A stretch of 64,000 nucleotides of DNA, taken from sequence record MT446421.1; one strand, given 5' to 3'. The translations under genes and the position numbers were made by a program. Below are positions 18,372 through 63,189 of this stretch, piece by piece; the first letter of the stretch is position 1, and each line of letters begins with the position of its first letter. Source of the DNA: Escherichia virus TH55. The notes below the pieces were generated by a model. It did no database searches. It saw only the letters and a program-made list of their open reading frames with translations, and was not told where the DNA came from.

Positions 18372-21086
18372 TTAAAAGTCAAACATATCAAAAAGAGTTG
18401 CTTTCTTTTCGTAATCAACCTTTGCTGCTTCAGAGAACCCCGTTAACGGTTTGACAAAAGTCTTCTGGAACAGTGTGTTGTAGTCCATCCACTGCAGAAC
18501 CTGGTCACGAATTTCAATCGGGAGTTCAATCCCTGATGGCCATGCAATCACAGTTTCGCCAAACGGGTTACCAACTTTAAGAGGAAGCACATACACCTTT
18601 TCCCCTTCCATGATTTGTGGAACAGTCTTCAACCCTTTGGTTGCACGCATGTAAGCGAGCACGCCTTTGATATGAGCCGGACACTTAAATCCAGGGAAAC
18701 CACCCTCATTATATTTCTGGATGTTGTTAACCGATGATACACCTGCGATTGTCATGTAGTTAAGCTCATTAAATTCCTTATTGAATTCCTTGAAGTATGT
18801 CTGCAGAGATTCTTCACCTTCTTGCAGCATGCGACGGATACATTCTTTCAGGGCTTTCTGACATGCTTTTGGCGTACTCGACTTTTGAGTTTCCAGACCC
18901 ATGATTTTCAGTTTCGGAACAGCATATCGGGTGCCTTCCATATCGTACACGTTCAGAGCATAACGCTTCTTCGCCGTCCAGAATCCACCAACACCTTTAG
19001 AACCCAACGGAGGACATGCAATCGCTTCACGGTCCATAAACATAAGGTGCTGTTTGTTGTTCATGTATTCAGCCAGCTCACGGAAAGCTTTATCGATTGC
19101 TGGTTCCAGACGGTCTTTCGCAAACTTGTCCATGAAGTCAACCAGGTGGTTTGTATCGCGGAATTTAGATTCGCCACCAACCTTTTTAATCAGGTTATCG
19201 CACTGGATATAAATGGAGTCAGTATCGCCATAGAATACATATGTTTCACCACTTGTACCACAAACACTATCAAAATATTCGTTAACTTTACGCTCAATCC
19301 ACTGCAATGTAAGTTGTCCGAAAGATGTAATCGCGGTTGCATTTCGCAGGTCAAAGTAACGGAACCAGATATTACCCAGAGCGCCATAACAACTGTTGAT
19401 AAGCAGTTTACGGTTAATCTGTGCGGTCATGCCTGCAACTTCTTCCATCTGCGCTTTGTACAACATACCATTCAGAACTGTTTGATTCAGACCATGCAAG
19501 GTTGTTTTCATATTATCATCAAAGTCATAACGATAATCAACTTCAGGCTCGGTTGTACCAGTTCCTGGATTACGCAGGGCTTCCTTAATCAGTTCACCAT
19601 TACGTTGAGCCGCAAGCATATAACCTTTGTGCTCTTTACGCTGATTAAACACCTTGGTGACTTCTGTTGGAATAATACCCGCAACATCTTTAAAATACAT
19701 CATACCGTTTGGAGCACAACTAAATGTATCAGATGGACGGTCAGCAGTTCCTGCGATGTATTCGTACATTGGCGCTGGTGTAAATGACCCGGCAATCGTT
19801 TCTGGACTAATGTTAATCTGTCGGATGATGCTCGGATACAGAGATGTTAAGTCACAGCTCATAACGTATTTGTATGCGTTCGGAATCGGTTCCTTAACAA
19901 ATGCACCTGGGAACGATTGACGAACATGTGATTTGGTTTCCGGAATGACTTTATTTTGAGTCTTCAGGCTGTTAAAGATAATCGCATCCCAAGTTTTGAT
20001 TGGGCTGAATACAGACTGAATCTGCATTTTTGCATAATAACCCATTGACTGGCTAAGGTTAATAAACTGACGCTTACGGTCAATCTGTACAACACGATAA
20101 ACATCGATGATGTTATAAGAAATATACCGTTGGTGATTTGATTCGCGCAGTTTAGAAATCGGGCCATCATACGGGAGTTTACCAACACCCAGCTCAGATT
20201 CCGCAACATAATCCAACGAATAAGACGGTTGGTTTGTGAAGCTGAACTTTTTATACAGGTCCAGATAATCCAGAACAGAGATACCCAGAATCTGAACGAT
20301 TTCTTGTTCTTCACCGAAACCGTTGTTAATGACCTTAACTTTTGTACGACGATGTGGACTCAAACGTTTTGCCGTAGCTTCACCAAATACATTTTTAAGG
20401 CGGTTGTAGATATATGGAATATCAAACTTCTCGATGTTCCAACCAGTTAACATAACCGGAGTTTTCTCGTTCCAGAATACCAAATACTGTTGGAGCATTT
20501 CTTCTTCTGAATCGAAAGCCATATAAACAATTTTTTCCAGGATTTCTTCAGGGACTTCATCACCGCCATCTTCTTGCAGCTTAGCAGCAATATCGATAGA
20601 CCATTGCTCCACAGTGGCGTATGGTGAGCCCAAAAGGTCAAAGACATAGAATTTATCGTCTATCGAATCATAGTGCGTCAGGGCATCAATAGGGTGACGT
20701 GCTTCAGACGGCTCAGGGAACCCATCAGGAGATGTCACCTCGATATCGAAGTTAGCCACACGGATTTTACTTGAATCGTATTTGATTTCGTGCGGGTAAC
20801 GGTCGGACAAGTATGCGAGTTTAAAGTCATCCATACCCATAGCTTCGAGACCCATGTCATTCATTCGCTTCATCCACTGGGATGCATCACGCATGGAATC
20901 GAATTCTTTTTTCACGCAACCTTTATTATAGATGTCTGTATATTTTGCAGCTTGGTCTTCGCGGGCATGCATAAACAGGCATGGGGCATAGGGGATTTCA
21001 CGAACACGTTCATGACCATTCTTGTCAATGTATCGTTCGAGTAGGTTGTCACCGATTTGTTCGATAGTTAAATAAAATTCTTGCAT
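18372..21086 (-). CDS. 43: DNA polymerase gp43 (family B)
   Basis: 904 aa; colinear with recalled T4 gp43 including exonuclease and YGDTDS polymerase motifs. Confidence 0.95.
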   Translation of the reverse strand: MQEFYLTIEQIGDNLLERYIDKNGHERVREIPYAPCLFMHAREDQAAKYTDIYNKGCVKKEFDSMRDASQWMKRMNDMGLEAMGMDDFKLAYLSDRYPHEIKYDSSKIRVANFDIEVTSPDGFPEPSEARHPIDALTHYDSIDDKFYVFDLLGSPYATVEQWSIDIAAKLQEDGGDEVPEEILEKIVYMAFDSEEEMLQQYLVFWNEKTPVMLTGWNIEKFDIPYIYNRLKNVFGEATAKRLSPHRRTKVKVINNGFGEEQEIVQILGISVLDYLDLYKKFSFTNQPSYSLDYVAESELGVGKLPYDGPISKLRESNHQRYISYNIIDVYRVVQIDRKRQFINLSQSMGYYAKMQIQSVFSPIKTWDAIIFNSLKTQNKVIPETKSHVRQSFPGAFVKEPIPNAYKYVMSCDLTSLYPSIIRQINISPETIAGSFTPAPMYEYIAGTADRPSDTFSCAPNGMMYFKDVAGIIPTEVTKVFNQRKEHKGYMLAAQRNGELIKEALRNPGTGTTEPEVDYRYDFDDNMKTTLHGLNQTVLNGMLYKAQMEEVAGMTAQINRKLLINSCYGALGNIWFRYFDLRNATAITSFGQLTLQWIERKVNEYFDSVCGTSGETYVFYGDTDSIYIQCDNLIKKVGGESKFRDTNHLVDFMDKFAKDRLEPAIDKAFRELAEYMNNKQHLMFMDREAIACPPLGSKGVGGFWTAKKRYALNVYDMEGTRYAVPKLKIMGLETQKSSTPKACQKALKECIRRMLQEGEESLQTYFKEFNKEFNELNYMTIAGVSSVNNIQKYNEGGFPGFKCPAHIKGVLAYMRATKGLKTVPQIMEGEKVYVLPLKVGNPFGETVIAWPSGIELPIEIRDQVLQWMDYNTLFQKTFVKPLTGFSEAAKVDYEKKATLFDMFDF

Positions 21087-37779: not shown

Positions 37780-38044
37780 ATTTGTGTTTACAATGTCTGC
37801 ATTTGTAACGAAGAGTACTAGTCTGCCAATGGACTAACTGGACCTGTTCAGTTCCACATTCTGGACAGTTAGGAACGCTCTTAGAAGCACGTTCACGGCG
37901 GCGAACCATAGCCATTACCATATCCCAATCGGGAACCTGACTATAATCATCAGTCCAGTTTATAAGACCTTTATTAAACCCCGCTGCGGGGGTCCATTCT
38001 GGAAATGCAGTTTCTGCAATATCTTCAGCTAAACGTTGTTTCAT
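37751..38044 (-). CDS. zinc-ribbon protein
   Basis: 97 aa; CPECG...CRHCKH Cys4 pattern. Confidence 0.5.
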
Positions 38045-39030
38045 TTCAGTAGCTCCAGAGCCTGTTCCAGTTTATCCAGACGATTAGTTGATTCTTCCCA
38101 AAGTCGCTTGGCTTTGGTATAGTCTTCAGTTGCCTTTTTATTAACAGCAAGAGCTTTATTATACGCCATTTCCAGAGCAACAATTTCAGGCGCTTTTTGT
38201 TCCACTGGCTCATTATTCAGATTATCAATCAGGTCTTCAAGGGTGGTTTCTTGCGGAGCATTCATAATTTCCTCACTTTTCTTTTTATAAATTTCTGCAT
38301 CAGTTGGTTGTTTTGCGCATTTAACTTCGCGTAATGTCACCACAATTTTCCAACCTTTCCAACCATGAGTACTGGTGATAGGGTCTACTTTAATTTTTTC
38401 AACAGTGCGCATATAGTTAAGGGCGCACTGCATCTGTGAAGTAAGCGTGCTCGCGGCATCAAGATACTTTTTGACATTTTCTGGAGTAGCTACCGGCGTA
38501 AAGAATTCATACTTAACTGTAATAATTACCTGGTTTTCACCAGACTCTTTAACATTTATCATGTGCTCAGCCAAATGGGAGATAGTGCGATAATCGCTAC
38601 CCATCAATTTTGTCGCTGATTTGATGATAGACATTTTGTTATCTCTGAATTCACGAGCCCAGCAATTTGCGAATTCAGAAACAGTATAGCCTTGTTTATC
38701 AAGGTAGTATTTTTCAACATCACCAAACCAATGATATCCAATTGTACCTTTACCATGTCTGGATTCAACGCCAAACTTATTAAGAAGGTCTTTATTAACC
38801 AGGTATGCCAGGACTCGGGAACCTTTAAAAGTTTTCTTGATATCATCTTTACCGGCACGGCTCGCAATAGTCGCAATGTCTTTCTTGAAGCGCCCGGATG
38901 CAACAATCGTCGAGTCAATCTGATTTAACCAGTAATTGATAATTAAAAGGATAGCCGATTCACCTATTAATGGTTTTACTTTTGCATCGATAGTGGTGTT
39001 AAAGGCCTGGATATATTCGTTACGTGTCAT
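38041..39030 (-). CDS. hypothetical protein
   Basis: 329-aa ORF; C-terminal coiled-coil. Confidence 0.55.
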   Translation of the reverse strand: MTRNEYIQAFNTTIDAKVKPLIGESAILLIINYWLNQIDSTIVASGRFKKDIATIASRAGKDDIKKTFKGSRVLAYLVNKDLLNKFGVESRHGKGTIGYHWFGDVEKYYLDKQGYTVSEFANCWAREFRDNKMSIIKSATKLMGSDYRTISHLAEHMINVKESGENQVIITVKYEFFTPVATPENVKKYLDAASTLTSQMQCALNYMRTVEKIKVDPITSTHGWKGWKIVVTLREVKCAKQPTDAEIYKKKSEEIMNAPQETTLEDLIDNLNNEPVEQKAPEIVALEMAYNKALAVNKKATEDYTKAKRLWEESTNRLDKLEQALELLK

Positions 39031-39088
39031 AGTGTTCTCCTCATAAAGTAGGAATTCATTATACTCCCTCCATCCTTGGAAGTAAACA

Positions 39089-39970
39089 TTATTTTAATGC
39101 TAAAATCGCCGCCTGCAATTTATTGCGTTGTGTTTCCATATTCTTGATGCGATTCAGAACATCCTGAATACCCTTTTTCTCATCTTCAATCAGACCGTTT
39201 AAGCGGTTGACTGATTCCTGGATAGCATCAGCATGATAGCTCTCAATAGGCTTCATTGGTGGGTTAAAGATTTCAAGAGAGCTGTTTGGCTGGATTTTCC
39301 ATTGATACATATTTTTAACTTCCAGTGGTGAAATTTTAGCCTGGTCGTAAGATTTAAACTGACCTGTAACTGCTGGGTTATATGTCGCAGTAGGGATATG
39401 TTCTGCCATTTCTGGTTCCTTTTTCTCTTGATAAGGTGCATAAGACAAAAGATATTCTTTAGTTAATTTAATATCAATGACTATAGTTTTAAGGAATTTT
39501 TCCGTTTGGTGGATATAATTTGTATCTTCTTCAAACGTGTATGCTTCAACAGCATGGCGCATATAAAACAGCGCGATACCCATAACCTCTTTAAAGGTAT
39601 CACAAAGAGCAACGTCGCCCTTGGTGGTTGGTTTGAACTTAATCTGTATACCATCATTCTTGATATTGATAATCAAGTTGTCAGAGTTAAAATTATAGTT
39701 CTTGATGTTAACCGGAGCCTTGCGAATACGAAGCCCGCCAGCCAGGATTTCCTTAATGCTCTTACGAACTGTGGCACCAAACAAAAACGCAGGGCGGCGG
39801 CAGTAATCATTCAGAGAGTTAATTCTTACAATACGTTGCCCATACCCCTGGGTGGCAGAACCTGATTTGATTTTACCAAAGTTAACCAGAGAATTCATCG
39901 CGATAAGACGGGTTGCACGACCTTCACGCTGTTCAAATCGAGAATATTCTTTACGTGTTTTAATGTTCAT
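39089..39970 (-). CDS. hypothetical protein
   Basis: ORF trimmed to ATG 39968-39970; C-terminal coiled-coil. Confidence 0.5.
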   Translation of the reverse strand: MNIKTRKEYSRFEQREGRATRLIAMNSLVNFGKIKSGSATQGYGQRIVRINSLNDYCRRPAFLFGATVRKSIKEILAGGLRIRKAPVNIKNYNFNSDNLIINIKNDGIQIKFKPTTKGDVALCDTFKEVMGIALFYMRHAVEAYTFEEDTNYIHQTEKFLKTIVIDIKLTKEYLLSYAPYQEKKEPEMAEHIPTATYNPAVTGQFKSYDQAKISPLEVKNMYQWKIQPNSSLEIFNPPMKPIESYHADAIQESVNRLNGLIEDEKKGIQDVLNRIKNMETQRNKLQAAILALK

Positions 39971-39971
39971 A

Positions 39972-40208
39972 TCATAATCCAAATAATTTTTTATAGAGTT
40001 TAGCAAAAGGCCAGGCCACACACATTATAACAGCGACTACCCAGAATATAGGCCAGCAAAATGTTGTGAACACCGCATCATACTCGTCCCCACTTTCGTA
40101 GGGACTATCAAACTTGTGAAGTAACAGGGTAGTAATAAAACCTATCACAAGATAACCAAAAATAATGCTGATAATCAAAATAGTCATATTAATCCTTAAG
40201 CAATTCAA
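39972..40208 (-). CDS. small membrane protein
   Basis: 78 aa; two hydrophobic helices. Confidence 0.45.
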   Translation of the reverse strand: MNCLRINMTILIISIIFGYLVIGFITTLLLHKFDSPYESGDEYDAVFTTFCWPIFWVVAVIMCVAWPFAKLYKKLFGL

Positions 40209-41034
40209 TAACGTTCATCAGTTTCTGACGTTCGGCTTTCGCCGCGTTATTCAGTCCCGACAGACGGAAAATTTCATCATCTTGCTGCTGGATGGTGATG
40301 TTAAGCTCTTCAATCTGTTTAGTGAAAAGCTCAATTTGCTCTGAATATTTTTCATTGCTTCGCACTGGAACAGGTTCCATTTTAGGAGCTTGTTCTGAAG
40401 GGCTGACTTCAAATTGGTCTTTAATTTGACATAGTTTAATACGCTGGACGCCTCCAGTTTTAACATCATAAAAGGTAAGAACACCATGGCATTCCAGTAC
40501 AGACAATGCCAAACGAAGATGGAATTTCCAATTATCATATTGACATCCACTAAAAGAAGAAATACTGTATTCACCTTCTTTTTGACCTTTAATAACATTA
40601 AATAGTTTATAATCTAAAGAATTATTGGTTTTAAAGGTCATTTGTTTATCTTGACCGCTTGCTAAACGAGCGCCTAATGCCAATAAACGGCGCTGGTTTT
40701 TCCAAAGGTCTTTAACCACTTCATCAAACGTCATGGTGCTAATCGCACGACCATAAAGGTCATAGCCTTTGTTATAATTTTTAAGTAGAATTTTGGCATT
40801 AGCACGAGACAACATACCTGAACGATGAAGAGATTTCATGACTCGGTCTTCTAATGTAAGAAGACCAGTGGTCTTTTCAAAGATTTTAGTGAATTCAGCG
40901 GAATTAGTACAAACATTGAACTTATTCCACATCATATATAGAACATTTAAAACCACATCTTTAGTGCTTGGAATACTGTTAAATTTAACAACTTTTTTAA
41001 CTTCAGAACGAATTTCATTAATTGCTTGTGACAT
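40189..41034 (-). CDS. hypothetical protein
   Basis: 281-aa ORF; AGGAAA SD; C-terminal coiled-coil. Confidence 0.55.
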   Translation of the reverse strand: MSQAINEIRSEVKKVVKFNSIPSTKDVVLNVLYMMWNKFNVCTNSAEFTKIFEKTTGLLTLEDRVMKSLHRSGMLSRANAKILLKNYNKGYDLYGRAISTMTFDEVVKDLWKNQRRLLALGARLASGQDKQMTFKTNNSLDYKLFNVIKGQKEGEYSISSFSGCQYDNWKFHLRLALSVLECHGVLTFYDVKTGGVQRIKLCQIKDQFEVSPSEQAPKMEPVPVRSNEKYSEQIELFTKQIEELNITIQQQDDEIFRLSGLNNAAKAERQKLMNVIELLKD

Positions 41035-41097
41035 AATAATTTCCTCAATAGATTAATCAAAGGTCAGAACCATTATACCATCCTTGGTATAAAGCGT

Positions 41098-41622
41098 TTA
41101 TGCGAGAACCGTCTTTAAACGCTCTTCAAACTTCTGAAGGAGTACCTGGCGCTCTGCTCTTTGTTTGGTATAGGTTTCAATACGCTCTGAAGTGAGATTG
41201 TATTGTTCATTAACTGATTCCCTCATGAATTCAGGAATCTCTTTACATGCTTTGATTTCATTGAACTTATCAAGCACCGCTTGTTGTTCAGCAATCAGAC
41301 CATCATAATATTGGATATCTGATTTGATGTTTTGTACATCAGATTCAGTAGGCATATTTTTCTTCGCTCTTGTCGCCTGATACTCAGCATTAGTCTCTCT
41401 TGACCAGAACAGGGAGCGGTTTTTATTGGTGTTTTTATACACATCAACAATACCAACTGAATCAACAGTCACAATCCAGTTCCAGGCGTTTTTATAAGTT
41501 TGACCACCTGATACTGTAATCTCACCCGCACAAGCAACATCATTAAAGAACTTGCTTTGTGCTTCTGATTTAAAATTACCATTATTGTAATTAATCAGAT
41601 TAAAGATTGATTTAGCTTCCAT
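41098..41622 (-). CDS. hypothetical protein
   Basis: 174-aa ORF with own promoter motif. Confidence 0.55.
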   Translation of the reverse strand: MEAKSIFNLINYNNGNFKSEAQSKFFNDVACAGEITVSGGQTYKNAWNWIVTVDSVGIVDVYKNTNKNRSLFWSRETNAEYQATRAKKNMPTESDVQNIKSDIQYYDGLIAEQQAVLDKFNEIKACKEIPEFMRESVNEQYNLTSERIETYTKQRAERQVLLQKFEERLKTVLA

Positions 41623-41658
41623 TTTATTCTCCAGTATTTGGTAACTCAGTATGGGAAC

Positions 41659-41687
41659 ATTATACGTCTATCCCCATACCATGTACA
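41659..41687 (-). promoter_or_regulatory. early-type promoter
   Basis: -35 TGTACA 41682-41687, 17 bp, -10 TATAAT 41659-41664. Confidence 0.55.
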
Positions 41688-41690
41688 CAT

Positions 41691-41993
41691 TTAATTAAAA
41701 GTTCTTTCAGTATTTTCACCACTGAACCAGACGCTCTTAACGGCTTGCTGGGCGCGATGGAGCTGCTCTGCCATATAAACACCAAGGGCCTCAGCTTTAC
41801 GTGCCCTGTGAGCTTCTGCGGCGACTATTTGCAACTTATCCATCATGATAAGAGCTTTACATTTCTCCTTCAGAGCATATCGCTTCTTCTCTTCTGGAGT
41901 TTTGACCATTCCTCTTAACTTGTGCATTTTCAACTTAAAATGGTCAGCAGATTTCAGACATGCGTCAGTCATGTCAAGTTCATACTTTTTCAT
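41691..41993 (-). CDS. hypothetical basic helical protein
   Basis: 100-aa ORF. Confidence 0.5.
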   Translation of the reverse strand: MKKYELDMTDACLKSADHFKLKMHKLRGMVKTPEEKKRYALKEKCKALIMMDKLQIVAAEAHRARKAEALGVYMAEQLHRAQQAVKSVWFSGENTERTFN

Positions 41994-41999
41994 AATTCC

Positions 42000-42206
42000 T
42001 CACTTGCGACGACGTTTTGGTAATGGTTTAGGGAAGAACATTGCTTTACCTGCAGGGGTCAAAGTCACACGCAAAGCATTACCAATACCAAGGGATGCTT
42101 TAACCAGACCTTTGGCTTTTAACTCACCAAATGCTTGACGTTGTTCGGGGTCACGAGTGTTAACCATCAGACCTTTTTCACCAGCAGCTTTGATTAATTC
42201 TAACAT
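42000..42206 (-). CDS. hypothetical protein
   Basis: 68-aa ORF; GGAGA SD; own promoter motif. Confidence 0.5.
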   Translation of the reverse strand: MLELIKAAGEKGLMVNTRDPEQRQAFGELKAKGLVKASLGIGNALRVTLTPAGKAMFFPKPLPKRRRK

Positions 42207-42255
42207 TTTATTCTCCGTTTGTTCGTTTGTTTATTTGGTAACTCAGTATGGAATC

Positions 42256-42284
42256 ATTATGCATCATGACCATCTGGTTGTACA
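42256..42284 (-). promoter_or_regulatory. early-type promoter
   Basis: -35 TGTACA 42279-42284, 17 bp, -10 CATAAT 42256-42261; just downstream of terminator. Confidence 0.55.
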
Positions 42285-42304
42285 CTACTTTTTAAAATAA
42301 AAAA

Positions 42305-42320
42305 GGACCCCGAAGGGTCC
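42305..42320 (-). terminator. rho-independent terminator
   Basis: GGACCC-TTCG-GGGTCC hairpin followed by TTTTTTATTTT. Confidence 0.75.
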
Positions 42321-42563
42321 TTAGATTACACTCCAAAAATTATGGAAGCGGATATCATCGATAGCCCAGTTAACAAACATGCGAGTTTGTTTGGGTGTTG
42401 GTTTACATGAGTACTTGTTATTGACCCGACGACCAGTTTCTCGACAGACTGCTTCGAGATACCATCGGCGGCCTTTATGAGGTCTTCCGTATGATAAGAA
42501 GACCTTGATTTCTTTGTTAACGATAATAGGAATTGTGGTTGTCAAGGTATACCTCTTCAACAA
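42321..42563 (-). CDS. hypothetical basic protein
   Basis: 80-aa ORF followed by strong terminator; 5' end overlaps upstream gene. Confidence 0.45.
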   Translation of the reverse strand: MLKRYTLTTTIPIIVNKEIKVFLSYGRPHKGRRWYLEAVCRETGRRVNNKYSCKPTPKQTRMFVNWAIDDIRFHNFWSVI

Positions 42564-43527
42564 ACTTGTCCCAGAACTTCATGTCCACCTTCACAGGCAT
42601 ACCATTCTTAGCAGCCTGGATGGCCAGAACTTCAACTAAATCGACAGTATCTTCAAGAAGTTCTTGAACTTCTTTAAATGGTAATTCACCAGCTTTAATC
42701 AGCTTAATGATAGAGGCTTCACGCAATGGGAATACCAAGTCACCTGTTTGGTAGATTTCCATCAATTGATACCCTGCACGATATGCATGGCTCAGTGCTT
42801 TCCAGTCAATACCTTCATTAGCTTCAGCCTTACGAGCACGTTCACCATATTCGGCGTCGAGTTTATTCAGAGATTGCTTGAGCTCGATTAATGATAGAGT
42901 AGTTTGGTATTTACGACCGAGGACAGTATAGAACGTTTGAGGACCTGTTTTCTCATGGTTATGAAATACCCATTCGCAGAACTCGTTTTCAGGGAGCCTG
43001 TGTTTGATATCTTCTACCTTAGTACGTCGTTGCTTAGTGGAACCATCTTCTTGATAATCAACCCATTGTTCAGGAATCTGGTTAACAATTTCCAATACAC
43101 CACGCAGTGCAGCCAATCGAGAACCTTTAACACCATATTTGGAAGCTTGCTTACGGACGTACCCCAAATAGGCTTTCATGTTAGTTGTATAGAACCGCGA
43201 ACGGTTGTCTTGAATAAACTTCCATACATCTGGTAAATCGGATTTGACTACCAGGTCAGCCGGTGTGTGAATCATATCCAGAGCAACGGTTTCGCCTTCG
43301 GCTGCCAGTTTAAAGAAATATTTCAGGCTATAAAGTTCATGGTCAACATCATCTTTTGTATTTTTGGTAGCCGTGTTATTCGTGTTCAGGTTGGTATGGT
43401 TCATCGCGGTTCCGAGCAGGATATCTCGCGGATGAGGAACAAAGATTTCTTTAAAATCAACATCAGATTCCGGAGTGCTTGTTCCATAAAGATGGCTACC
43501 GAAGTAGCCTTTCATAACTGTTCTCAT
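42517..43527 (-). CDS. predicted nucleotidyltransferase (pol-beta superfamily fold)
   Basis: 336 aa; N-terminal GSHLYGTSTPESDVD fits hG[GS]x9-13Dh[DE] motif. Confidence 0.5.
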   Translation of the reverse strand: MRTVMKGYFGSHLYGTSTPESDVDFKEIFVPHPRDILLGTAMNHTNLNTNNTATKNTKDDVDHELYSLKYFFKLAAEGETVALDMIHTPADLVVKSDLPDVWKFIQDNRSRFYTTNMKAYLGYVRKQASKYGVKGSRLAALRGVLEIVNQIPEQWVDYQEDGSTKQRRTKVEDIKHRLPENEFCEWVFHNHEKTGPQTFYTVLGRKYQTTLSLIELKQSLNKLDAEYGERARKAEANEGIDWKALSHAYRAGYQLMEIYQTGDLVFPLREASIIKLIKAGELPFKEVQELLEDTVDLVEVLAIQAAKNGMPVKVDMKFWDKFVEEVYLDNHNSYYR

Positions 43528-43976
43528 TTCTTCGCCTCAAAATGGATTACCGGGCACATCTTAGATTTACGAGCTTTGATATATTGAATGAAAACGTTTT
43601 CTTTAATTTCCTTTCCTTCGCGTTTGGCTAGAATGCGTTGCCATTCCTTTTCTTCTTTACGTAAATCATACCAGGACCATAAATTCATTAGACCGTACAT
43701 AATGCCAAAGGATACCACTAGAATAAGGGCCAGTGTAGCCAGTCCTAAAATAAATCCTAAGCTTAAACCAACCGGCATGCTTAATACAAAGAAATGCTCT
43801 AATACACCAGCCCCCGCGACAGTTAATCCAAAAACCATACTACCGATAAAAACGGCACAAACAAAACAAGCCCAAACCATTTTCCAGAAGTAAGCACACA
43901 AAGAGTGTGGTCGAGAATGACGGTCATAAAAACGGTCGTGTAATTTAACGTGCCAAGAGTTTGCATTGATAATCAT
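43524..43976 (-). CDS. membrane protein
   Basis: 150 aa; multiple hydrophobic helices. Confidence 0.5.
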   Translation of the reverse strand: MIINANSWHVKLHDRFYDRHSRPHSLCAYFWKMVWACFVCAVFIGSMVFGLTVAGAGVLEHFFVLSMPVGLSLGFILGLATLALILVVSFGIMYGLMNLWSWYDLRKEEKEWQRILAKREGKEIKENVFIQYIKARKSKMCPVIHFEAKK

Positions 43977-43986
43977 AATATTTTCC

Positions 43987-44547
43987 TTAAGAGTTCATAG
44001 TTGGGATAACAGAGTTCAGATAAGAGACTAAAACTTTTAGCTCGTCCTTAGTAAATACCACTTCATTAAAACCATCGTGTACTTGGGTAATACATAGTTG
44101 GTCACGACCGTCATGTTGAACAACAGTCAGTTCAGTATTATAATTTAATTCTTCTTCGTCGCCGTCAAAGGTTTCGCTGGAGCGAATCAGTGCATCTTGG
44201 CCTGGTACTTTCCATTCGACTTCTGGCTTACATTCTTCCTGGAACAGTTTGAAAATACAATCAAAGAATTTATCAGAATCGCTAATGCTCAGACATTTTT
44301 CATCTGTTTCAATATTAAACCCACCATCGTGCTTATAAATGCGAGCGCATACATCATCGTTAATATCAAATACACCACTAAAACTACCGCTAAGATAATC
44401 CTGTTTATCTAAAACCTTTAAAGCATAAAGTGGTTTAATATCTTGGATAGTCAGTACGATTTTATCGTCTTCTTGACAAAGCTCAATTGCATTATTAACT
44501 ACTTCAGCGGTCAGTTCGCCAAACAATTCAGTTGTTTCAATAATCAT
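43987..44547 (-). CDS. hypothetical acidic protein
   Basis: 186-aa ORF. Confidence 0.5.
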   Translation of the reverse strand: MIIETTELFGELTAEVVNNAIELCQEDDKIVLTIQDIKPLYALKVLDKQDYLSGSFSGVFDINDDVCARIYKHDGGFNIETDEKCLSISDSDKFFDCIFKLFQEECKPEVEWKVPGQDALIRSSETFDGDEEELNYNTELTVVQHDGRDQLCITQVHDGFNEVVFTKDELKVLVSYLNSVIPTMNS

Positions 44548-44557
44548 TTTCTGTTCC

Positions 44558-44842
44558 TCAACGGTTATGTTTTAAAATACTATAAAGTGCTTCTACTTGG
44601 CTTGCATCCAGGTAAATAACATCATCATCTTGCTCAATGGAAATCCCACCGGTATTACCTTTAACAAAATTACATTCGCATACTTCAACTGGGCGGTATA
44701 CGTCACCAACTGGATGCTCAGGCTCCAGAACAATCACACCATTTTCAGAATTGCCGCTTGGGTCATATAACATTACATTTTCCTCACTAACCACGAAAAG
44801 AATAAACCGATTAAAATAGGACCTATAATCATTGTTGACCAA
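44558..44842 (-). CDS. hypothetical protein
   Basis: 94-aa ORF. Confidence 0.45.
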   Translation of the reverse strand: MVNNDYRSYFNRFILFVVSEENVMLYDPSGNSENGVIVLEPEHPVGDVYRPVEVCECNFVKGNTGGISIEQDDDVIYLDASQVEALYSILKHNR

Positions 44843-44864
44843 GCCCAGGGTTCTAAGTAATAAA

Positions 44865-45122
44865 TCATCTCATGCTCCTGTGCCAACAATTTCTTGGTTC
44901 ACGTTTAAAAATTTCATCATGCATTGATTGACAACCAACACAATATATCACACCTTTAATCGCTTGTCTCCGCGCTTCAGGAATTTTTTCGTCGCAGTCA
45001 AAACAGAATTCAGCAGACTCCCTTTCAACTGCAACTTGTGCTCGTGCGTGAACGATAGCGGCTTGGACAACCGCTTCCATCTCTAACTGTTCAGCACCAT
45101 CTTTTGCAAATCCAACAGCCAT
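44865..45122 (-). CDS. TraR/DksA-family C4 zinc-finger protein
   Basis: 85 aa; CFDC-x17-CVGC with IPEARRQA core typical of TraR/DksA. Confidence 0.65.
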   Translation of the reverse strand: MAVGFAKDGAEQLEMEAVVQAAIVHARAQVAVERESAEFCFDCDEKIPEARRQAIKGVIYCVGCQSMHDEIFKREPRNCWHRSMR

Positions 45123-47843: not shown

Positions 47844-48016
47844 AATTCAATTCCATCCATAACCAAAATTCTTTTTCGTTGGGTCTTGAGAGCTTCGTTA
47901 GCCCGGTCATAATCTTCTTGACTACCGCTAGGCTGTAAAGCCGCTACCTTTTTGGCCAAGTGAATAAGCTTATCCAAGTTTTCAACAATACGTTCTTGTT
48001 CTTCATTCAGGCTCAT
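47840..48016 (-). CDS. small protein (58 aa)
   Basis: Not in ORF track; ATGA overlap with downstream start. Confidence 0.3.
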   Translation of the reverse strand: MSLNEEQERIVENLDKLIHLAKKVAALQPSGSQEDYDRANEALKTQRKRILVMDGIEL

Positions 48017-48467
48017 AATCCACCACTATTAAATCAATATCAGGAGTAAACATGTCGATTAATTTAGAAACCTTTTCCCAATCTCCACCTGCAATACCAC
48101 AACCAATGCGAGGAATGTAAATTACCGGTTTAAACAAAAGGGTTTCTGCTTGTAGATTTAATTCTATCATACAATTTACTAAAGCACCATAATCAAGATT
48201 AGGGCCCGGTTCATATTGAGTGTACAAATTATAACACATACCAAACCCAGTAGGTTTATGTTTAAAAACAATAGACATATCGCCTAATTTATCACGAGAA
48301 CCATATTCAGTGGTGGTTTTATCTATTTCTAAAACTTTTGGATAGGCCTTCGCCAACTGTCCAGCTACACCAGAACCCATTGTGTGGAAGCAGTTACAAC
48401 CATGAGCAATAATATTGCCTTGAAGAAAGAGGGCGACGATATCGCCCTTAATATACTGGGTAATCAT
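48003..48467 (-). CDS. macro-domain-like protein (possible ADP-ribose binding/processing)
   Basis: 154 aa; IAHGCNC...MGSGVAG and IGCGIAGG glycine-rich segments resemble macro-domain motifs; tentative. Confidence 0.5.
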   Translation of the reverse strand: MITQYIKGDIVALFLQGNIIAHGCNCFHTMGSGVAGQLAKAYPKVLEIDKTTTEYGSRDKLGDMSIVFKHKPTGFGMCYNLYTQYEPGPNLDYGALVNCMIELNLQAETLLFKPVIYIPRIGCGIAGGDWEKVSKLIDMFTPDIDLIVVDYEPE

Positions 48468-48823
48468 TTAGAGTTCAATCCTCTATTATATGAATCCACT
48501 AACCTGTCAACCATACTGGTGCAGGCCGCCTTATATTTTGCACTTGAAAGAATGCAATCCATTTCAAATAATTTCTTTTCATATTTGTTGGATAATACAT
48601 TCTTTTTCAAAAGTGTATGTTCAACATCATTTTGGCCATCTTTATATGCCGCGGTGAGCTTGGCGCTGAACTGGATTACACAATCCACATTGCTTGGTGC
48701 GCAATAATCTTTAGCCGTCCTCGTTGCATATTCTATGATGCTGTTGTTGTCATCGCTCTGTACTGAAGCTATTCCTCCCATGCTGAATACTAACCCTATG
48801 GCTAAAGTGATAACTCTTACCAT
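48464..48823 (-). CDS. secreted/periplasmic protein
   Basis: 119 aa; N-terminal signal peptide. Confidence 0.5.
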   Translation of the reverse strand: MVRVITLAIGLVFSMGGIASVQSDDNNSIIEYATRTAKDYCAPSNVDCVIQFSAKLTAAYKDGQNDVEHTLLKKNVLSNKYEKKLFEMDCILSSAKYKAACTSMVDRLVDSYNRGLNSK

Positions 48824-63036: not shown

Positions 63037-63113
63037 TGGTCGGGGTGGTGGGATTCTAACCCACAACCTACGGTTTAGAAGACCGTTGCTCTATACAATT
63101 GAGCTACACCCCG
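63037..63113 (-). tRNA. tRNA-Arg (anticodon UCU)
   Basis: Hand-folded cloverleaf: acceptor CGGGGTG/CACCCCG, anticodon stem ACGGT/ACCGT, loop CTTCTAA, T-arm GTGGG/CCCAC, encoded CCA. Confidence 0.75.
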
Positions 63114-63189
63114 GGTGGCCCCATCCGGACTTGAACCGGAAACCTGCCAGTTATGAGCCGGATGCTCTAACCAATTGAGCTACAGGGCC
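63114..63189 (-). tRNA. tRNA with CAU anticodon (Met or lysidine-type Ile)
   Basis: Hand-folded: acceptor GGCCCTG/TGGGGCC, D-arm GCTC/GAGC, loop CTCATAA, T-arm TCCGG/CCGGA; abuts tRNA-Arg. Confidence 0.7.

Follow-up and report, generated by a model that had tools for sequence, protein, structure and literature searches.

Bacteriophage T4, with its Pnkp and Rnl1 enzymes, provides the classic example of viral RNA repair. [quoted passage not shown] It owes its name to a link with RNA ligases, and its predicted task is to put back, ahead of ligation, nucleotides that RNA ends have lost (Burroughs and Aravind 2016, cited through PMC12776372 and PMC7824862). The same repair role has been predicted for the RlaPs of phages (PMC7824862). 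A 2025 preprint describes two Pseudomonas enzymes, PfRlaP and PaRlaP, which extend the 3′-OH of RNA by one or two NMPs (or dNMPs), prefer Mn2+, and are inactive on DNA or protein (PMC12776372). When presented with a nicked tRNA mimic, PfRlaP favours the 3′ end of the 5′-half over the acceptor 3′ end, and the Pseudomonas enzymes partly restore aminoacylation to a tRNA repaired after the loss of one nucleotide (PMC12776372). RlaPs also label E. coli RNAs of the sizes of rRNA, full-length tRNA and cleaved tRNA, with little NTP specificity; the authors of the preprint consider that an enzyme lacking base specificity would render faithful repair inefficient, and note that the 3′-OH product suits 5′-phosphate ligases (PMC12776372). 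Structurally, these proteins combine an N-terminal nucleotidyltransferase (NTase) domain with a C-terminal helical domain (PMC12776372).

With regard to T4-like phages, nrdC.11 orthologs were matched to the COG3541 nucleotidyltransferases as early as 2006 (PMC1524935), and T4 NrdC.11 itself has been marked as an RlaP ‘of unknown function’ (PMC12776372). In a sequence-similarity network it falls within cluster 5 of PF10127, apart from the characterised enzymes of cluster 1a (PMC12776372). Viable genome-reduced T4 mutants are known that lack the nrdC.11–mobD.3 region (PMC9825161). Herein, an ortholog of this gene is analysed within a window of 64,000 nt from Escherichia virus TH55 (MT446421.1), in which a 336-aa protein had previously been proposed, from the letters of the DNA alone, to be a Pol-beta-type NTase.

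The TH55 gene and its expression signals

The 336-aa ORF of the original prediction was recovered intact, with its ATG at 43527 and the end at 42517 taking in the stop codon; to this can be added that it lies on the minus strand (Table 1), inside a long series of minus-strand early-region genes. The start codon overlaps the TGA stop of the preceding 150-aa membrane-protein ORF as ATGA, which suggests translational coupling of the two. A scan for promoters and terminators returned no convincing promoter specific to the gene. The same scan shows a strong terminator-like hairpin directly 3′ of the 80-aa ORF downstream, which may end a transcription unit containing nrdC.11.

Table 1. Coordinates of the TH55 nrdC.11 ortholog, its parts and other features of the window
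Feature	Position	Strand	Basis or remark
nrdC.11 ortholog, 336-aa RlaP-family (PF10127) Pol-beta nucleotidyltransferase	42517..43527	-	ORF, PF10127, PHROG 388
Ribosome-binding region	43528..43539	-	GAGG 7 nt 5′ of the nrdC.11 ATG, read from the sequence
N-terminal alpha/beta NTase core, ~residues 1–96	43240..43527	-	AlphaFold2, conservation, hhalign
Beta-rich middle subdomain, ~residues 151–208	42904..43077	-	AlphaFold2; hypervariable, many indels across the family
C-terminal helical domain, ~residues 213–335	42520..42891	-	Conserved R230, K243, H247, R250, P267
Upstream neighbours: 150-aa membrane protein (phrog_944), then MobD.1 (PF24449/PF24448)		-	Minus-strand gene run; membrane protein at 43524-43976
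Downstream neighbours: 80-aa DUF7279 ORF, 68-aa ORF (phrog_6001), then NrdC.9 (DUF7203), NrdC.8			Syntenic position of T4 nrdC.10 is 42000-42563
Terminator-like hairpin	42303-42322	-	AAGGACCCTTCGGGGTCCTT then TTTTATTTTA
nrdC.1–nrdC.11 ORFs	38041-43527		Often labelled ‘thioredoxin’ in databases
Motif match inside 904-aa ORF, non-NTase	18372-21086	-	Regular expression
Motif match inside antisense ORF, non-NTase	39554-39865	+	Regular expression
Macro-domain protein (T4 Tk.4 type)	~48004-48468	-	~4.5 kb upstream of nrdC.11
tRNA-Arg(TCT) and tRNA-Met(CAT), two adjacent genes	63037-63189	-	

The signature on which the NTase proposal had been founded, hG[GS]x9-13Dh[DE], is indeed present at the N-terminus, where residues 9–24 read FGSHLYGTSTPESDVD. 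Taken alone, however, this motif is weak and non-specific evidence, because the same expression also matches an unrelated 904-aa ORF and an antisense ORF. Counting ORFs of 100 aa or longer, of which the window has 84, it matches three times, two of the matches being in these non-NTase ORFs, and it arises in 1.1 % of shuffles of the 336-aa protein itself. The assignment as a Pol-beta-type NTase is nonetheless firm, as it derives from a PF10127 score above threshold, a match to PHROG 388 and the conservation of individual residues, each of which is described below.

Orthology with T4 NrdC.11 and distribution amongst phages

Positions 41000–45000 of the window match, at 100 % identity, Escherichia phage UPEC07 (MW250787.1), a T4-like member of the Straboviridae, Tevenvirinae, genus Gaprivervirus, in which the identical protein (QUL77657.1, 100 % match) is annotated as a ‘putative nucleotidyltransferase’. 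The ortholog in phage VR7 carries the name nrdC.11. Alignment to T4 NrdC.11 (NP_049709.1, 55435-56445, 336 aa, RefSeq product ‘nucleotidyltransferase’) is gapless and shows 81 % identity over 336/336 residues, and the protein matches PHROG 388, ‘nucleotidyltransferase’, with an E-value of 3.7e-131 across residues 1–335. The T4 and UPEC07 genes occupy the same early-gene block, running from nrdC.x to rI-tk, such that length, position and catalytic residues are shared between the T4 and TH55 proteins. This high-identity, full-length match, along with a gene order conserved in the Tevenvirinae, directly supports the placement of the TH55 protein in the orthologous group of T4 NrdC.11. Beyond these examples, 1534 phage records contain the protein according to tblastn, with hosts including Escherichia, Klebsiella, Shigella, Aeromonas, Acinetobacter and Vibrio, amongst others.

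The immediate neighbours differ between the two phages. Whilst T4 has the mobD homing endonuclease gene upstream of nrdC.11 and nrdC.10 (325 aa) downstream, the TH55 phage has the 150-aa membrane protein in place of mobD, and two small ORFs, of 80 and 68 aa, at the syntenic position from which nrdC.10 is missing. Variation is also apparent within the gene itself. A 159.7-kb ‘T4’ record (OL964745.1) retains only residues 302–336 of nrdC.11, or approximately its last 35 codons, and this remnant would be consistent with deletion of a dispensable gene. For the RB49/JSE-type phages (NC_012740.1), the match occurs in two pieces that together cover 65 % of the protein, which indicates that the middle subdomain has, judging from this alignment, diverged or been lost.

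Annotation of the family in public databases is irregular. Many GenBank and UniRef entries call both the NTase and the unrelated ORFs of the nrdC.1–nrdC.11 series ‘thioredoxin’, which looks like an error propagated from the ‘NrdC.x’ locus names. Other labels found on nrdC.11 orthologs are ‘putative HNH homing endonuclease’ and ‘ArsR family regulator’, in one record each, and ‘hypothetical’.

Family membership and conservation

A search of Pfam assigns the protein to PF10127 (RlaP, ‘RNA repair pathway DNA polymerase beta family’), one of the families against which a check had been proposed, with 48.1 bits and an E-value of 1.6e-12 over residues 8–133; this exceeds the gathering score of 23 bits, with the match spanning only profile positions 25–141 of 249. 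Individually, 145 of 146 members of the clade match the same profile. When 1.84 billion cluster representatives were searched with HMMER, 3205 clusters were recovered at E ≤ 1e-3 and 835 at ≤ 1e-30, nearly all of them full-length proteins of 300–350 aa. Membership of NrdC.11 in the RlaP family is close to certain.

Conservation was assessed in 59 relatives (33–50 % identity) and in a wider set of 146 sequences. Within the former, G10, S11, G15, S21, D22, D24, Y131, R230, K243, H247, R250, P267 and G280 are invariant, with N56, D60, D62, D84, K130 and others conserved in at least 90 %. In the wider set, G10, D22, D24, Y131, H247, R250 and P267 remain invariant, and S11, D60, D62 and D84 are retained in at least 90 % of sequences. 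The orthologs therefore keep the G[GS] and DxD residues, the loss of which had been named as grounds for abandoning the NTase proposal, and the 146 sequences together display the catalytic signature of the Pol-beta superfamily, comprising hG[GS], DxD and a third conserved carboxylate.

Predicted structure

AlphaFold2, supplied with the 146-sequence alignment, returned a model with a pLDDT of 93.8 and a pTM of 0.81, in which an NTase core, the presence of which was likewise a point on which the original prediction depended, is present. The core contains strands at residues 2–9, 23–30, 44–48 and 61–67. G10 and S11 form the turn after the first of these, D22 and D24 open strand 23–30, D62 opens strand 61–67, and D84 resides in a helix at 80–85. 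Strands of the middle subdomain fall at residues 154–158, 164–168, 184–191, 195–202 and 205–208, coinciding with the heavily gapped columns 200–300 of the alignment; inferred from the difference in length, this subdomain is apparently absent from the canonical RlaPs of ~255 aa. [quoted passage not shown] Family, conserved catalytic residues and the NTase fold are all directly supported by these data.

The nearest solved folds are those of HalB, 3c18, kanamycin nucleotidyltransferase ANT(4′) and LinB, rather than cGAS or DncV. Each of the four has 10–14 % identity to NrdC.11 and no relationship to it at the sequence level; they also differ from it in substrate (oligo-dA synthesis, antibiotics) and in genomic context. 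In a Foldseek comparison with viral models (BFVD), there were 32 matches at E ≤ 1e-3, many of which are phage ‘nucleotidyltransferases’ of 230–290 aa, with alignments that exceed 300 columns. Amongst the 32 is a match from Klebsiella phage Eowyn, which has a homolog of canonical RlaP. Sequence searches of the PDB, using the protein and the 146-sequence profile, gave only a chance match to SAMTOR (E 0.5–1.5), and the PfRlaP crystal structure was not detected in the PDB copies searched.

Comparison with canonical RlaPs

Canonical RlaPs, such as those encoded in the RtcB-RlaP-RtcA operons of Pseudomonas fluorescens and P. aeruginosa (PMC12776372), share with NrdC.11 the GS and DxD elements, as well as further acidic residues. 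An N-terminal NTase followed by a C-terminal helical portion also appears to be common to both, when the AlphaFold2 model is set against the published description (PMC12776372), and both types of protein occur in RNA-repair operons. The two also differ: one canonical RlaP reaches 261.6 bits across the whole PF10127 profile, as compared to 48.1 bits for the TH55 protein, and NrdC.11 differs in its beta-rich hypervariable insert, with only ~90 N-terminal residues aligning significantly. For a comparison of profiles, 13 canonical RlaPs from cellular loci were aligned. Against these, the NrdC.11 clade was matched by hhalign with 94.8 % probability and an E-value of 5e-8 across 87 N-terminal columns, pairing D22, D24, D62, D84 and P89 with the invariant D42, D44, D75, E97 and P102 of the canonical proteins.

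The C-terminal halves of the two clades align with E-values of 0.16–0.2, which is not significant. This non-significant alignment sets K243, H247, R250 and P267 against canonical K152, Y156, R159 and P175, so that the K-x3-[Y/H]-x2-R…P spacing of the helical domain lines up in both. Together with full-length Foldseek alignments, the spacing of these lysine, aromatic, arginine and proline residues makes C-terminal homology a suggestion, and it stays one because the hhalign result falls short of significance. The TH55 protein is, as judged from its sequence, a divergent and longer subfamily of RlaP (~80 residues above the canonical length), a placement that agrees with the published network (PMC12776372).

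The two clades are also distributed differently amongst viruses, with canonical RlaP found in jumbo phages and the NrdC.11 clade in T4-like phages. Canonical RlaP was identified in 78 phage records, most of them jumbo phages (phiKZ-like, Caulobacter, Burkholderia, Brevundimonas), and no T4-like phage appears among the 30 such records listed or in the organism tally.

Pol-beta NTases that act on RNA ends are known outside of this family. The CCA-adding enzymes, which belong to the same superfamily, extend the 3′-OH of RNA and thereby restore tRNA function. No match of NrdC.11 to the class I or class II CCA-adding enzymes was found by sequence model or by fold, and RlaPs, unlike these enzymes, add 1–2 nt with little base specificity (PMC12776372).

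Genomic context in phages and cells

No neighbour of phage nrdC.11 points to a defence or signalling module. Elsewhere, the UPEC07 genome contains RnlA, polynucleotide kinase (Pnkp) and a second, Rnl2-type RNA ligase; these genes lie ~60–90 kb from nrdC.11, and pseT, rnlA and rnlB are not adjacent to it. The window also contains two adjacent tRNA genes (Table 1).

Cellular relatives present a different setting. One genome per prokaryotic species was scanned, which yielded 156 stretches with relatives; 80 loci were retained for study. Canonical RlaP occurs near the NrdC.11-type gene in 17 of these; where the position of neighbours was analysed (70 loci), it is the next co-oriented gene downstream in 14. 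RtcB and Pnkp (kinase-phosphatase-ligase) are each found in eight of the 80 loci, and a Ro60-vWA-like gene in four; overall, at least 28 have one or more neighbours of an RNA-repair type, many of the contigs being short. Cellular representatives of the NrdC.11 clade are hence found together with genes for RNA ligases and end-healing enzymes. These repair neighbourhoods are matters of direct observation, as is the fact that the phage encodes Pnkp, Rnl1 and an Rnl2-type ligase. Two loci illustrate the arrangement. In Nitrosospira (L032, 1807-16626), a divergent RtcR gene is followed by Ro60/TROVE, RtcB, RtcA, the NrdC.11-type gene, canonical RlaP, Hen1 and an AAA protein, with Pnkp further along; in Asticcacaulis (L050, 5338-10277), the order is Pnkp, NrdC.11-type, RlaP and Macro.

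The frequent occurrence of NrdC.11-type and canonical RlaP genes in tandem means that they are probably not interchangeable. It suggests that the two are non-redundant, possibly with different substrates or chemistry; where one operon holds both types, they may divide the labour between them. The tandem genes often overlap. As a separate observation, the Macro-domain gene of the Asticcacaulis locus (L050:9813-10277) lies directly after the Pnkp-NrdC.11-type-RlaP cluster, and a Macro-domain protein is also encoded upstream of phage nrdC.11; it may be an RNA-repair accessory common to both.

Proposed role and alternative explanations

For the NrdC.11 clade we infer an RNA substrate, the addition of 1–2 nt and an anti-nuclease role. 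In the proposed mechanism, a two-metal Pol-beta active site would be formed by D22 and D24 along with a third carboxylate, for which D62 is the best candidate, D84 lying nearby, and the broken RNA would be held in a basic cleft lined by R230, K243, H247 and R250. As modelled on the Pseudomonas RlaPs, one or two NMPs would be moved from NTPs onto the 3′-OH of the broken RNA, with little base specificity. During infection, this activity could refill tRNA nucleotides excised by ‘smart’ host anticodon nucleases, for example RloC, after which Pnkp, along with Rnl1 or Rnl2 (5′-phosphate ligases accepting a 3′-OH), would heal and seal the molecule to give a functional tRNA. Regarding the separate elements of this scheme, RNA 3′-end addition by NrdC.11 is likely and an anti-nuclease role plausible; the explanation as a whole, namely RlaP-type addition of 1–2 nt to RNA 3′ ends in the service of tRNA repair after anticodon nucleases, we would regard as probable on balance, albeit by no great measure. 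Several of the observations speak against it: the PF10127 match is confined to part of the profile, the C-terminal halves of the two clades do not align significantly, bacteria often keep a canonical RlaP beside the NrdC.11 type, and phage nrdC.11 lies away from pseT, rnlA and rnlB. T4 without nrdC.11–mobD.3 is, moreover, viable under laboratory conditions (PMC9825161), and low base specificity would make accurate repair inefficient.

A general tailing of RNA 3′ ends, apart from repair of the anticodon loop, is rather unlikely. The enzyme might in this case act on truncated CCA ends of tRNA, or place 1–2-nt tags on host or phage transcripts so as to alter their stability. Such a function would sit well with the labelling of RNAs of several sizes and the limited NTP specificity of characterised RlaPs (PMC12776372), and with the physical separation of phage nrdC.11 from the ligase and kinase genes. 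Against it are the operons for end healing and sealing in which cellular members of the clade reside alongside RtcB, RtcA, Pnkp and Hen1, and the preference of PfRlaP for the 5′-half end of a nicked tRNA over its acceptor end (PMC12776372). A further explanation would see the NrdC.11 type as a distinct second NTase. In bacteria it would be the obligate tandem partner of canonical RlaP within RtcB or Pnkp-Hen1 islands, with another acceptor, choice of NTP or product (e.g. short oligonucleotides); in T4-like phages it would have been co-opted for stand-alone counter-defence, whether by rounding off the Pnkp/Rnl1 repair of damage from wobble-excising nucleases or, more radically, by making HalB-like oligonucleotide decoys. 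This we hold to be improbable. Nucleotidylation of a protein or small molecule (AMPylation), as performed by MntA antitoxins and the aminoglycoside or lincosamide nucleotidyltransferases, seems more doubtful still.

The remaining candidates concern defence and signalling. Primer-independent synthesis of oligonucleotides in the manner of Hailong HalB, for example of oligo(dA)-like decoys that silence host defence, would draw on the fold similarity noted above, but at 13 % identity this resemblance is as expected between any two-domain Pol-beta NTases. In addition, no PADLOC model scores below an E-value of 0.004, no HalA-like partner is present, and the family is that of RlaP, whose characterised members extend an existing RNA 3′-OH by 1–2 nt, and not DNA (PMC12776372); we therefore view HalB-like activity as very improbable. 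The least credible of all is synthesis of cyclic oligonucleotide second messengers by a cGAS/DncV-like (CD-NTase) enzyme, an explanation which has in its favour only the generic hG[GS]…DxD motif common to all Pol-beta NTases. No such family emerged from the Pfam scan, the PADLOC search gave only weak hits to PDC-S09 (E 0.004), and the neighbours are T4-type small early genes and a membrane protein, with no effector or Cap genes of the kind expected for CBASS. Similarly, the suggestion that minimal NTases be considered leads to a match with the MntA model of the type VII MntA-HepT systems (NCBIfam NF047752) of 16.5 bits over residues 8–25 only, far below its cut-off of 60, and no HEPN match was found amongst the nrdC.11 neighbours. 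As neither NCBIfam nor PADLOC offers a usable match, CD-NTase, MntA and known-defence assignments are rejected. From the original prediction, then, the interpretation as an NTase and the connection to PF10127 stand, whilst cGAS-like nucleotide signalling finds no support.

Significance

NrdC.11 is a known and already annotated gene, and its identification in TH55 adds no new concept, because repair of this kind has already been suggested in print (Burroughs and Aravind 2016, cited through PMC12776372; PMC7824862). Possibly new, and only modestly so, are the tandem of NrdC.11-type and canonical RlaP genes in cellular RNA-repair islands and the finding that one clade occurs in T4-like phages and the other mostly in jumbo phages. 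The analysis places a gene that is routinely mis-annotated (‘thioredoxin’, ‘hypothetical’) in the RlaP family, and documents its clade within cellular RNA-repair operons, frequently beside canonical RlaP. To our knowledge, there is no demonstrated route by which T4-like phages withstand nucleases such as RloC, which remove a nucleotide besides cutting. Were NrdC.11 to replace the lost nucleotide, the Pnkp/Rnl1 pathway would gain a third enzyme, one that over 1500 sequenced phages possess.
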